A stretch of DNA of 64,000 nucleotides from Nitrosopumilaceae archaeon. Its GTDB lineage: Archaea; Thermoproteota; Nitrososphaeria; Nitrososphaerales; Nitrosopumilaceae. The notes under the pieces are model-generated. The model made no database searches. It was not told where the DNA came from and saw nothing but the letters and a program-made list of their open reading frames with translations. Of the stretch, positions 42,645 to 46,681 are shown piece after piece (within the stretch, counting starts at the first letter, position 1; every line of letters starts with the position of its first letter). Location: contig CBDCCK010000002.1 of NCBI GenBank assembly GCA_965214835.1, forward strand, positions 1,792,001 through 1,856,000, written 5' to 3'. Made by a program: the position numbers and the translations under genes.

Positions 42645-43006
42645 GTCGGTGCGCCGGATCCTGATTGGCGCTCTGGCCTTTTATACCTCGTGTACAGAGC
42701 CGGATGCCTGCCGATCCCACAGCATCAGAACCCTGGCCGCGGGGATCCCATGCTGCAACCCACTGCAAGCCACACCAACACCACGGCAGCGTCTTACCTT
42801 GTCTGCACTGTCATCTGCCACGGTGGAAGGTGCGGTCTTGCCCAGTATGTGTCGGCGGCCGTCTTGGCCCGTCCTCCGGTCCGCGGCGTGTCCCGGTCTT
42901 GTACTTGTGTGGTGGCCCGCTGTTCCTGGTGCGGTCATGCCAGAACCCCGGAAATGGCTGGGGGCGTAGAGGCAAGCCGGGCCTCACCACTAAAAGACAT
43001 TATACA

Positions 43007-43849
43007 TCATGCCGAAAATCGGCATACCTCTATCCAGCCACTTTTTCTGGTCTTGAAATAGCGGTTCTTACCAGTCCTGTTTTTTTCCATCCCCTTCATT
43101 TCATAATGGCCGGTAACAACCCCGTCAATCCTCCTCACATGTGCCTTGATGCCTGCAACGTTGTACCTTGTAATCTGTGCCAAATCAAAGTCTGCAGAGA
43201 TGATATGAAACACCTGGTCCGCAATGCCGGCACGGCTCTTTTGAACATCGCTGCCCGGCAGCAGGTATTCCAGAATGACCTGGCTGCTCTGATCCACCGT
43301 GCCGAACCTCTTGATCATGCCCCATAACTTTTCTGCTGCCAGATAGTACGATATGCCCTCTAGTATGATCAACGTCTGCCGGTTCCTCCTCCACCCGGCC
43401 TCGGCCAGCCCCCTCATCACCGTATTGGGCCTTGAAATGTCCGCCGTAATGCAGCAGATGCGTCTGCCCAGCGACGGATCAGTCCTCTTAATCAGGCCTG
43501 ACTTTGCCCCCATGTTCTCAAAATCCACCTCAAAAACCCTCGTTTTTTGCGATGACTGGCAGACCTCAAGCGACAGGGGATCCATGCCTGCACCTAGGAT
43601 TACCACCTGCTCTGCGCCTTTTTCAACGGTCTCCCTGGTCAGCCTCAGGATGCAGTCCTTTCTGTTCTTGATTACCTCCCCGTAGTGCGGCCATACCTGG
43701 TTGCATCTTGATAACAGCCCCCTGCCTGGGCCGAGCTCTAAGTCTTTTAGATATTTTTTGGCAAGCGCACCCCTGTGTATTTTTCCGTCCGCCCACAGCA
43801 GTGCCAGTGCGGAGGTAGAGGAGATCCCGTGATGCTGCACTGGAAGCAA
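43007..43849 (-). CDS. SAM-dependent methyltransferase (leucine carboxyl methyltransferase-like)
   Basis: QVVILGAGMD, FEVDF, ADI, ILEGISYYL; exact start uncertain. Confidence 0.85.
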   Translation of the reverse strand: MLPVQHHGISSTSALALLWADGKIHRGALAKKYLKDLELGPGRGLLSRCNQVWPHYGEVIKNRKDCILRLTRETVEKGAEQVVILGAGMDPLSLEVCQSSQKTRVFEVDFENMGAKSGLIKRTDPSLGRRICCITADISRPNTVMRGLAEAGWRRNRQTLIILEGISYYLAAEKLWGMIKRFGTVDQSSQVILEYLLPGSDVQKSRAGIADQVFHIISADFDLAQITRYNVAGIKAHVRRIDGVVTGHYEMKGMEKNRTGKNRYFKTRKSGWIEVCRFSA

Positions 43850-43934
43850 TTCTGACGATCCATATAAGAATTCTTTGAGTTCTAGCCTGTTGAACACATG
43901 ATAAAAACGCCCCCGCCGTAGCCAGGGTGATGGA

Positions 43935-44040
43935 TCAACCCCTCGTTATGCATGTGCTTCGCGCACTATTTGTTGAATGGGGATATCCGAGCTGCTGTGT
44001 TCCTGTGCTACGCGCACTGATGGATGAATGCAGCTTCTGA
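43935..44040 (+). ncRNA. Predicted IS110 bridge RNA (target-binding and donor-binding loops)
   Basis: Two internal loops each capped by GTGC-n5-GCAC; guides match element flanks and ends. Confidence 0.75.
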
Positions 44041-44079
44041 TCTGTCAAACCATATCCAAAAGGAGGTGAAAGAAAAGGA

Positions 44080-45157
44080 TTGAGAAGCATAGGAATAGAC
44101 ATTGGAAAGAGAAAATGCGCAGTGTGCGTCATCGACGCCAAGGGACACGTGCTAGAGGAGGGCTCGTATAACAACACGTACAAGGAGGCATCAAAGCTTG
44201 CTGCACGACTGAAAAAAGAGTACAAAAAGTGCCAGGCCGCGTGCGAGTCAACGGGCAACATGTGGCTAAAGACGTTCAGGGCGTTTGAGGATCAGCATAT
44301 CCCCATACTGCTTGCAAACACCCTCAAGATGAAGATAGTATCAGAGACCAGCGCAAAGACTGACCCGATAGACGCAAGGAAGATAGCCGACACGCTCAGG
44401 GCCGGAATGATACCACGATGCTACGTGGCATCAGCAGAGCTGAGGGATGTCAGGGAGCTGATGGGGTACAGGATACGGATGGTACAGGAGAGGACCGCAG
44501 TCATAAACGGGCTGCACAGCTTGGCTTGACAAGTACGATATAGCCATAGATGCATCCACGATGTACTCCAAGAAGGCCATACGGAAGATCTCCGATACCA
44601 GGCTGAACATGCCAAACGATGACAGGATACTGGCAAGCTGCACTAGGAGGATTGTACACGTCACAGAGGAGATAGGCCAGGCAGGGGAGGACATAGGAAG
44701 ACAGGCAGGATCGAACGAGGATGCCAAGCTGCTGTTGAGCATGACGGGAATAGACACCTTTGCTGCAATGCTGCTGATAGCAGAGATCGGTGACATAACC
44801 AGGTTTCCATCGCCGAACCAGCTTGTGTCCTGGGCCGGCATGTGTCCCCGGGTGTACCAGTCGGGGGATCGCGAGTACCACGGCCACATGAAAAAGGATG
44901 CAAACCGCAGGATCAACTGGCTGATGATCCAGATAGTCAACGTCGCCGTACAGCACGACGACAGGATGAGGGAGTTCTACGAGAGGGTCCGCAAAAGGAA
45001 CGGCAACAACCACGTCATAGCGATAACGCATGTTGCAAACAAGATGCTCAGGATAATCTGGCACATGCTGACGACAAAGACTGCGTATTCATCGCGCAAT
45101 GCTGCCCTGTACGACAAGAAGATCAAGAGGGTGACAGAACTGGCGGGAACGGCATAG
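44080..45157 (+). pseudogene. IS110 recombinase, single frameshift near 44525
   Basis: IGIDIGK, CESTG, AKTDPIDA (DEDD); GMCPRVYQSG catalytic Ser motif; VANKMLRIIWHML. Confidence 0.88.
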
Positions 45158-45538
45158 GATTGCCACCTTCCATCCCCCACCCACCCACCCAATGATCCGC
45201 CCGCACCCTGGCAGGTGCGACAGGACTGGCTCGTGCGTATTGCTAGCGTTAGCTATAAAGCACAGCCCGGCCGACTAGGCACGGATCAGAAGACGAAAGG
45301 AACGTTGCCATGTTACTGGCGGGCGTTTTACCATGGATGCATAACCCTTCCTAAAATTTGAAACTTGACCAAAAATCACCCAAATTATCAACGGATCCTG
45401 ACCGAAAAAGTAATGGAATATGAGGATGCCACGTATGGTACTTGACACACACGGACAATGCCAAGTACGTAGAGAGGGGGGCAGGCCTAGTAGTCAAGTA
45501 CGACCCAGGCTGGGAGAATGATCTGAAGAATGCCAACC

Positions 45539-46681
45539 GTAGTATCTAGCTGAGATAATCGCTCATCTTGCAGATCTTGATCTCGCTCCTGCGCAGCATG
45601 ACGCGTATGGACTTCTGCAACTCGCCAGCGGTCTTGTAAAGGCAGTTTACAGTCGCCTTTTTGAACCCGCACCACTGCCCCTCTATCTTGTTCAGCTCCG
45701 GCGTGTACGGCGGCAGGAACCTTAGCATCACGTCGACATTCCATTCTGCCAGCTGCTCCCTGACCAGTGCTGCCCTGTGATACGATGCGTTGTCGACAAA
45801 CAGCAGCACCCTGCCGTACTTGCGGCGCGGCACCTTGAGAAACCTGATGAACGTGTACCTGTCGGCCTTTTTGTAAAAGCGGCAGTCAAGTCCGTTTGCC
45901 GACAGGGCCCCGATCGAATAGAACCTCTCCTTTGACAGGTTGGACGGCGCATAGACCGGGCCTTCCCACGGGATACCAGCTGTTCTTGACGTTCCACCCA
46001 AGGATGAACGAGGCCTCGTCCCCTGTCATTATCGTGTGCCCCCTCTTTGAATGGTGCCTTACGTGCCACCTAGCTTTTTTTTGAACTCCTCTTTCTCGGA
46101 TTCTGAGGCTGATTTGGGGTGTTTTGGGCGGGGGGGCTTTCTGCATGAAAAGCCCAGGCATGTGCAGTGTCTTGTATATGCTGGAGACGGCATAGTCTAC
46201 CTTGTATTTCTTTTTGATGTGCACTGCAAGCAGCGGTGCGGTCCACACCTCCGACTCGAATCCGCAGCTGCGCGGGCCCGCAATCAGGTCGGCGCACACC
46301 TGCTTGAGATTCCCTGCATCCGGCCACATCCTGGTGCCGGGCCTCTTGATGTCGTACCTGCCCTGTATGCCAAGCTGCATGGCCCGTATCAGCCAGTCGC
46401 GTATCGTAGAGTACCCCCGGCCAAGCTGCCTGGCTATCTGGCGTATCGAGTCGCCTTTTTTGCGCCGTATGTAGGCCATCAGCCTGGCTGCAGCCTTGGA
46501 GTCGGTCTCGTTTTTGTGCCTCTCAAGGAGGGACGGGGCCGAGACGTTGGGAAGAAACCTGCCCCCTATTGGTATCATCGAGTCGTCTGGTTTCATGCGT
46601 ATTGCCTCACTGTGTAGTATCTAGTTCCACTGGTGAAAATTTCTTGTCCTTTTTGTGATTGGTTACTACGCATAGTTACTA
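45539..46681 (-). mobile_element. IS630 family element, second copy, frameshifted
   Basis: High similarity to 5349-6490. Confidence 0.85.

Follow-up and report, generated by a model that had tools for sequence, protein, structure and literature searches.

We describe an insertion sequence in a 64,000-nucleotide (nt) stretch from a Nitrosopumilaceae archaeon (contig CBDCCK010000002.1, positions 1,792,001 to 1,856,000; the whole stretch is called the window below, and its own numbering is used for features that lie in it). The insertion sequence occupies 1445 bp (cores excluded) of the + strand at 43893-45337, and it is very probably an IS110-family element with a bridge (seek) RNA gene at its left end, carried by an ammonia-oxidising archaeon. 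Five kinds of evidence carry this reading: matches between segments of the RNA and the DNA at the junctions, a covarying fold, covariation of the guides with flanks and element ends, empty target sites, and the family of the encoded protein. In the mechanism that we propose, loop 1 of the RNA would read the target and loop 2 the junction formed by the ends of the excised element; strand exchange by the recombinase would take place at a shared TG core, and the element would land in one orientation, without duplication, inside TAGCCTGT-TG-CATAAC. Transcription of the RNA, a circular intermediate, an RNA-protein complex and the strand exchange are the steps that we infer.

A covarying RNA with four guides

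The RNA core of about 116 nt (43930-44045, + strand) was delimited by its fold, by a covariance model and by covariation. In the minimum-energy fold an 8-bp outer stem (43930-43937 paired with 44038-44045) encloses two stem-loops, both of which have a large internal loop and are capped by GTGC/GCAC. Stem 1 is cccc/gggg with the cap GTGC-ttcgc-GCAC; stem 2 is gagctgc/gcagc(t)tc with the cap GTGC-tacgc-GCAC. Each internal loop has two arms, all on the + strand, and each arm holds a guide. In loop 1, the putative target loop, the 5' arm (43943-43953) matches the core and right flank at 8 of 8 positions, its segment gttatgca (43945-43952) being the exact reverse complement of TGCATAAC. The 3' arm (43967-43978) consists of the guide ATTTGTTG (43968-43975) followed by a conserved AAT-GGGG; the guide has the same sense as the left flank and core, and would thus pair with the bottom strand. 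Compared with the window's own left flank and core, gcctgtTG, this guide (atttgttg) has five identities, two would-be U:G pairs and one mismatch. In loop 2, the putative donor loop, the 5' arm (43996-44004) carries TGTGTTC (43996-44002), the reverse complement of GAACACA (the G of the core and the 6 nt with which the left end begins), and the 3' arm (44018-44029) carries ATGGATG (44020-44026), which has the sequence of the final 5 nt of the right end followed by the TG core.

The original prediction, made from the letters of this stretch, had proposed a four-guide, two-loop bridge RNA at this place. The six sequence strings that it quoted and both junctions are where it put them, its stems and caps are present, and the proposal itself is borne out by other copies and other genomes, in which the guides covary with flanks and ends.

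A covariance model built on 17 sequences from the archaeon's own genome, run on 30 loci of the archaeon's family, gave 19 full matches and one partial match, every one upstream of the transposase, as in the window. Across 19 distinct relatives, 95.1% of the stem cells are standard pairs, versus 34-51% when the partners are slid; compensatory changes occur at 20 of 27 pairs; and the covariation score is 0.532, versus at most 0.116 when slid. None of 500 shuffles gave fold statistics as high as those observed, counts that are tempered by the kinship of the sequences and by the use of a model-fitted alignment. G:U pairs are frequent (one outer-stem position has eight U:G, for example), as would suit a transcript of the + strand. 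In the relatives the 3' arms of both loops terminate in TG.

Copies of the element and the match of guides to flanks

A BLAST search of the element against its own genome gave three groups of copies. Group A has eight, the window copy included, at 97.8% identity or above, one of them interrupted by an insertion; an additional member is an 844-nt right part at 99% identity (C2:1081005-1081848). Group B has three copies at 83-92% identity and group C three at about 65-67%, and about 12 further places resemble the first 150-170 nt only. The boundaries of the window element were set by alignment of the eight near-identical copies and by the point at which the flanks diverge. The left junction reads gcctgt-TG-aacacatg, with the core TG at 43891-43892, and the right junction reads ccatgga-TG-cataacc, with TG at 45338-45339. 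This TG, present at both junctions, is single in the empty sites, and that of the left junction cannot be assigned either to the flank or to the element.

Group A copies share the left flank TAG[C/T/A]CTGT-TG (8 of 8) and the right flank TGCATAAC (all seven printed in register). In seven of the eight the 3' arm of loop 1 is ACCTGTTG, matching the left flank at 7 of 8 positions; the window copy alone carries ATTTGTTG, a CC-to-TT variant of it. The two wobbles and one mismatch that the original prediction had given for this guide are as it described, and what has to be corrected is that they belong to a variant copy, ACCTGTTG being the group's usual guide. The other groups have other guides at other flanks. 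Group B combines the guide CGTAGTTG with the left flank (C/T)AGTAGTTG, and its 5' arm predicts TGAAAATG, which is the exact right flank of copy 514651; group C combines GACTTCTG with the flank TACTTCTG. The same holds in other genomes, where the 5' arm of loop 1 matches the core and right flank at 8 of 8 positions in loci L033, L045 and L041 and at 7 of 8 in L034, L044 and L035, and the 3' arm matches the left flank and core at 8 of 8 in L034, L051, L044 and L053 and at 7 of 8 in L036, L046, L056 and L048. Within a single genome (G014), the guide variants TTTTTGTG and TGGTCGTG stand at the left flanks GATTTGTG and ACGTCGTG, respectively.

To score these matches we allowed each TG of a fixed upstream interval as a possible left boundary, for cognate and non-cognate pairings alike, set right boundaries from each element's own loop 2 only, and counted the six non-core positions. 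Three rows were dropped (L052, with the same sequence as L031; L042, with the same guides as L045; and L040, which lacks loop 1), and the 17 own-genome rows were represented by five, a single row for each group. Guides matched their own left flanks at a mean of 4.62 of 6 positions, versus 2.39 for non-cognate flanks (n = 21), and their own right flanks at 4.06 versus 1.73 (n = 18); in each case 0 of 20 000 permutations was as high, a figure that overstates independence, as most of the sequences are kin from one archaeal family. The loop 1 guides thus covary with the insertion sites of other copies, a check that had been suggested along with the original prediction. For loop 2, the 5' arm matches its own left end at 4.67 of 6 positions versus 3.78 for non-cognate ends (1 of 20 000 permutations as high), following the left-end variants AACACA, AAGGC, GAAGC, AAAGC, AATAC and TACACA. 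The 3' arm of loop 2 varies with the right end in the relatives (ATGGA, ATAGA, ATAGG, ACAGA), the right ends having been located by this same guide and so not being independent of it.

These elements form a natural set of reprogrammed guides, with several target specificities on one conserved scaffold, both within a genome and across an archaeal family, and they provide direct comparative evidence for RNA-guided targeting in these archaea.

As a separate observation, a repeat of the form (T/G)CGCCTAATTC(G/A)(C/T)CAGAATTCC.. adjoins several right ends (right flanks at C2:640362, 3124155, 1517773 and 2955617) for which the loop 1 5' arm does not predict it, and lies directly 3' of the RNA at C2:2929000. 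In one copy this repeat stands in place of everything after the RNA. It may represent a second target family, or recombination between copies.

The target is the terminal repeat of other mobile elements

The left target half (TAGCCTGT, 43883-43890, + strand) is the first 8 nt of a split IS630-like terminal inverted repeat, which continues beyond the element with the core TG and the right half CATAAC (45338-45345, + strand). The sequence from 45338 on was found again at 14 other loci of the genome, and uninterrupted TAGCCTGT-TG-CATAAC sites are present elsewhere in it. The predicted empty site exists, so that the refuting condition named with the original prediction did not apply: its 14-mer GCCTGTTGCATAAC (GCCTGT-TG-CATAAC) occurs four times in the 3.2-Mb genome, versus 0.024 expected, and the degenerate pattern TAG[ACT][CT]TGTTGCA[TC]AAC has 37 sites. 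Empty sites have a single TG. They are the ends of three repeat families, namely the IS630-like element, a second family and an 80-bp palindromic miniature inverted-repeat transposable element (MITE), which shows that the element targets position 8-10 of a terminal inverted repeat; the window copy has therefore split the terminal repeat of the IS630-like element on its right. That neighbour (45338-46596, plus 43883-43892) has two overlapping - strand open reading frames (ORFs), 45546-46001 and 45886-46596, with HTH and DDE_3 domains; its second terminal repeat was not found to the right of 46596 in the window with up to three mismatches. Group A copies share both flanks and orientation, so that insertion is site- and orientation-specific, without target duplication. 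The variant guide of the window copy (TTTGTTG) is a perfect match to a TAGTTTGT-TG variant of the terminal repeat that is common in the genome, and the same variant guide is found at such a TAGTTTGT-TG site in the mini-element at C2:639993 (see below).

The 80-bp MITE is bounded by the TAGCCTGTTGCATAAC repeat and is found at C2:3110703-3110782, 499166-499245, 3164685-3164764 and 2369396-2369475, among others. Most of the empty target sites come from this MITE and the second repeat family (..CATAACTCCGACTAGAGCCC..).

A transposase in two frames

The N-terminal part of the transposase, a DEDD/RuvC-like segment of 149 amino acids (aa), is encoded at 44080-44529 (+ strand) and matches PF01548 (DEDD_Tnp_IS110; E = 5.6e-29). 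It begins with a TTG codon, 8 nt downstream of a Shine-Dalgarno-like box of presumed function (GGAGGTGA, 44064-44071, + strand), and stops at TGA 44527-44529. The C-terminal part follows in the +1 frame (44531-45157, + strand; first ATG at 44561), matches PF02371 (Transposase_20; E = 1.2e-25) and has the serine motif YQSG. The motifs IGID, CEST, TDPIDAR and YQSG, which align with their counterparts in the solved ISCro4 transposase, are present in the two window ORFs; the catalytic residues are assigned as in the work on IS621. An intact paralogue of 359 aa, P0001 (C2:513383-514459), scores 234 bits on NF033542 ("IS110 family RNA-guided transposase"), for which the cut-off is 140. It matches the solved ISCro4 and IS621 transposases weakly, the aligned motifs being IGID, E, TDxxDAR and Y(Q/E)SG, and the donor-loop guides and ends of its element are the same as those of the window element.

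The frameshift lies at 44522-44529 (+ strand), where one extra G, at 44522-3, gives ..CTTGGCTTGAC.. versus ..CCT-GCTTGAC.. in the intact paralogue; the two frames overlap at 44507-44529. The original prediction had noted one frameshift in need of repair. The extra G is real, and the gene is indeed divided into ORFs at 44080-44529 and 44561-45157, but this is not a private lesion of the window copy: the frameshift is found in 11 of the 12 full or nearly full group A and B copies read (nine of group A and two of the three of group B; for example C2:2128799, 1942422, 2178162, 2580243, 677606, 1519223 and 1302401). Alignment shows the extra G itself in four group A copies and in two of the three group B copies, and three more group A copies have the same two-ORF pattern. 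Copy A1098251 is without ORF1, and the C-terminal parts of A1098251, 2951789 and 1081005-1081848 begin at residues 142-144 of the intact protein, as in the other copies. Relatives in other genomes have intact transposases.

Between the frameshifted lineages the ratio of nonsynonymous to synonymous substitution rates (dN/dS) is 0.18-0.36 in both frames, at dS 0.14-0.34, which indicates that purifying selection still acts on both. On the assumption of a single origin of the extra G that predates the split of these lineages, the protein has been under selection since that origin. Were the ribosome to shift by +1 at GCT TGA C, the product would read ..LHSLA-DKYD.., versus ..LHSLLDKYD.. in the intact protein. 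Read-through of the TGA was rejected: the zero frame beyond it contains no motif that continues the intact protein and no long ORF. The possibilities for the frameshift are +1 recoding, an enzyme made of two polypeptides, and gene conversion that later spread the G, combined with a supply of protein in trans. Since the frameshift is common to the copies, both frames are under purifying selection and an intact paralogue is present, the need for repair is uncertain; and given the variant left guide together with the frameshifted transposase, so is the window copy's own activity. A frameshift that is shared among copies whose frames are still under purifying selection makes a recoded or split recombinase directly testable. 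In practical terms these would be compact recombinases of a mesophilic archaeon, with the intact paralogue at hand for assay.

Mini-elements that carry the RNA and lack a transposase

RNA-only mini-elements coexist with the full copies. We found four complete elements of the 369-bp type (C2:639993-640361, 2139579-2139945, 2955618-2955986 and 3124156-3124518) and several partial ones (including C2:10112-10410 and 655395-655662). They consist of a left end with a complete bridge RNA and about 200 nt of right end, ..TTTTTAACATAGA-TG, without a transposase. The loop 2 3' arm is (G/A)TAGATG, matching this right end, in three of the five mini-elements read (S2955990 and S2139569, both complete, and the partial S10105), and differs from it in S639980 and S3124525. 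The loop 1 arms vary from copy to copy and some fit the flanks, for example in 2139579, which lies in the same terminal-repeat target. The mini-elements look like non-autonomous derivatives that have retained their own guide RNA.

Terminal regions of the element

The original prediction had combined a left-end RNA with subterminal inverted repeats, and this combination is upheld by gapped local alignment. The left repeat (CATGATAAAAACGCCCCCGCCGTA, 43897-43920, + strand) and the right repeat (45314-45335, + strand) form an imperfect pair of about 22-24 nt with two gaps; aligning the left end with the reverse-complemented right end gives a score of 23, versus 21 for the best of 2000 shuffles. 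A gapless inverted-repeat search of the element had found no subterminal repeats, and the insertions and deletions within them are what the gapped alignment accommodates. Outside the repeats lie extensions of 4 nt on the left and 2 nt on the right, plus the ambiguous 2-nt core. Relatives carry subterminal repeats too, with scores of 14-21.

Host and distribution

The archaeal origin that had been proposed for this DNA is correct, as two findings in the host genome show: a match to archaeal amoA of 384 bits, with none in 14 control genomes, and a full-length match to the archaeal 16S small-subunit rRNA model, which also matched all 14 controls, bacteria included. A search with the protein of the intact paralogue found homologues in 34 of 151 genomes, a count that takes in the archaeon's own genome (G000) and the unpublished genome G077, of which nothing else was used; 30 of the loci come from the archaeon's family. 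The RNA model matched six of the 151 genomes of a phylum-wide sample: five are G000 and members of its own family (four of the 19 sampled there), and the sixth, outside the family, has one weak match. Against a collection of named genomes the intact protein matched only a truncated copy on a contig of a Nitrosopumilaceae metagenome-assembled genome. The closest plasmid-borne relative found is a Haloarcula transposase at 34.6% identity; with filters off, the RNA model had no significant match at this plasmid locus or at five distant thaumarchaeal loci.

Comparison with known bridge and seek RNA systems

It was in bacterial elements that bridge and seek RNAs were established, in 2024. The core of IS621 is CT, versus TG in the window element. 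Among IS1111-type elements, IS4321 and IS5075 reportedly target the terminal repeats of Tn21-family transposons, and the window element shares this preference for the ends of other mobile elements. ISHvo10, which enters the comparison below, is archaeal by its name (Haloferax).

In IS1111-type seekRNAs the complement of the top strand precedes the bottom-strand segment, and IS1111 elements have subterminal inverted repeats and a non-coding region downstream of the transposase (Siddiquee et al. 2024, PMC11187229). The window element resembles those described there (ISEc11, ISPa11, ISKpn4) in its DEDD transposase, in subterminal repeats with short terminal extensions, in its guide order (top-strand complement 5' of the bottom-strand match) and in oriented insertion without duplication. 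It differs from them in having its RNA gene upstream of the transposase rather than downstream, an imperfect repeat of about 22-24 nt with two gaps rather than a near-perfect one of 11-13 bp, and extensions of 4 and 2 nt plus a 2-nt core rather than 7 (or 6) and 3 (PMC11187229); its archaeal host is a further difference.

With IS621, ISCro4 and ISEc21, bridge RNA elements of the IS110 type (PMC11208160; structures 8wt6 and 9t56), the window element shares a left-end RNA upstream of the recombinase, two internal loops with the target loop first and the donor loop second, one arm per DNA strand in each loop with overlap at a 2-nt core, similar sizes of the RNA core (about 116 nt) and of the protein (about 355 aa), and the use of repeated sequences as targets. 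The order of the arms is mirrored, however. In IS621 the 5' side of a loop pairs with the bottom strand on the left and the 3' side with the top strand on the right (Durrant et al. 2024, PMC11208160), whereas in the window element the 5' arms would pair with the top strand on the right and the 3' arms with the bottom strand on the left, and this is so in its relatives as well. The opposite orientation to IS621 that had been suggested for this element is therefore correct, and it is not new, being the order published for IS1111-type elements (PMC11187229). The long subterminal repeats, versus 2-3 bp in the IS621 type, and the weak protein similarity (E about 1e-8) are further differences.

Guide order and repeats of the IS1111 type with an RNA position of the IS110 type make a combined layout, so that the element can be described as IS1111-like with an upstream RNA, a rare mixed layout that bears on the relation of the IS110 and IS1111 subgroups. 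Exceptions of a comparable kind are on record: ISMtsp17 has an upstream region, and ISHvo10 and ISAcp5 have long regions on both sides (PMC11187229). The window element is like these three in mixing IS1111 features with an upstream non-coding region. The mini-elements recall ISPpu9, whose small-RNA module has copies (ssr9) elsewhere in the genome without a transposase; unlike the window element, ISPpu9 is bacterial and has its RNA downstream of the transposase (PMC12288879). Archaeal IS110 recombinases are already catalogued, 662 of them in one survey (preprint 10.1101/2024.06.21.599552), which makes an archaeal bridge RNA expected rather than surprising. In a literature search of a limited collection, covering thaumarchaeal IS110 elements and archaeal bridge RNAs, we found no description of this family.

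A more ambitious interpretation would join three things into one claim: a third bridge-RNA layout, with IS1111-type order and repeats and a left-end RNA; a recoded or split transposase; and guide-only mini-elements moved in trans. We think it unlikely that all of this holds jointly. If it did, the layout would be the intermediate expected had the RNA gene switched sides of the joined ends between IS110 and IS1111, the transposase would normally be made by +1 recoding at GCU-UGA-C or as two polypeptides, and the 369-bp mini-elements, each with target loops of its own, would represent guide-only mobile elements that occur in nature.

Alternative explanations

Several observations weigh against the bridge-RNA reading, in addition to the kinship of the sequences compared. 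The energy of the single-sequence fold is unexceptional (z = -1.13), and no Rfam family was found in 43000-46500 at E up to 1, the only match being a chance one to a long non-coding RNA outside the element. Some guides fit poorly: that of the window copy is identical to its own left flank at only 5 of 8 positions, the right flanks of group B copies 1519223 and 1302401 fit their 5' arms badly, right-flank scores are as low as 1 of 6 (L031, L047), 2 (L053, L046) and 0 (group C copy C2665849), and the lowest left-flank scores are 3 of 6 (L039, L041, L047). The transposase is frameshifted in all nine group A copies read. Contigs of four public runs contained neither the circle junction nor the joined empty form of the region 43700-45500, a result that is silent on whether such forms exist. 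A possible objection is that the left-end structure is a mere 5' leader or regulator of the transposase mRNA, and that its matches to the junctions are left over from end duplications or nested insertions. The RNA does lie immediately before the start of the transposase, with which it may share a transcript, and the loop 2 guides are fairly conserved, so that their match to the ends could in part reflect shared ancestry (compare the non-cognate mean of 3.78 of 6). A leader of this kind would not, however, be expected to have loop 1 arms that covary with the flanks in three groups of the own genome, in mini-elements and at 17 loci from 16 further genomes, the stems being meanwhile either constant or altered by compensation. 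The matches moreover follow the published pattern of one arm per strand with overlap at the core (PMC11208160, PMC11187229), and we regard the leader explanation as highly improbable.

The frameshift could likewise be thought an assembly or sequencing artefact, with the gene intact in the cell. A single extra G is an error type known from long-read assemblies, but here the identical G stands in 11 separately placed copies that differ elsewhere and is absent from one paralogue; contigs of four public runs from four studies reported no insertion or deletion at this place (they may be of the same strain, and contigs drop rare variants). Such an artefact is hardly credible. A different matter is whether the family's bridge RNA works while the window copy itself is dead or dependent, moving at most with protein from the single intact paralogue at C2:513383-514459. 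To this we assign a chance only a little short of even. The window copy alone in group A has ATTTGTTG, and the frameshift divides its gene into two ORFs; the intact 359-aa paralogue has the same donor-loop guides and ends, and the 369-bp RNA-only copies make protein in trans plausible in this genome. Yet the low dN/dS in both frames would be unexpected were the coding capacity irrelevant, and the variant guide can still pair by way of its two U:G wobbles; it is moreover perfect for TAGTTTGT-TG, a common variant of the terminal repeat and the kind of site at which mini-element C2:639993 carries the same guide.

Other features of the element ends and flanks

An A/T-rich box, GATAAAAAC, lies at 43900-43908, some 29 nt ahead of the RNA's outer stem, and the left ends of relatives have an A/T-rich box at the same place (GTAAAC, GTATAT or GATAAC). 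It could be an archaeal TATA element, which its composition would suit; it also belongs to the subterminal repeat, and the right end has an inverted copy of it. A scan for sigma-70 promoters was set aside as not meaningful, the host being archaeal.

To the left of the element, a - strand ORF (43007-43897) encodes a domain of the leucine carboxyl methyltransferase type (PF04072, 9.6e-19). The GTG listed as its start falls within the left end of the element, and its true start is uncertain or may have been displaced by nested insertions.

Departures from the usual left end were seen in two other genomes. Two copies in genome G006 (L063 and L072) are without the usual AACACATG start and read ..GATTCATTTG|GAAAAACATCC; their loop 2 5' arm nonetheless predicts AACACA, and a third copy in that genome, L069, starts normally. 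At L036 (genome G041) a 15-nt sequence, CCTAATAGTCTGTTG, stands in tandem duplicate immediately before the left end.

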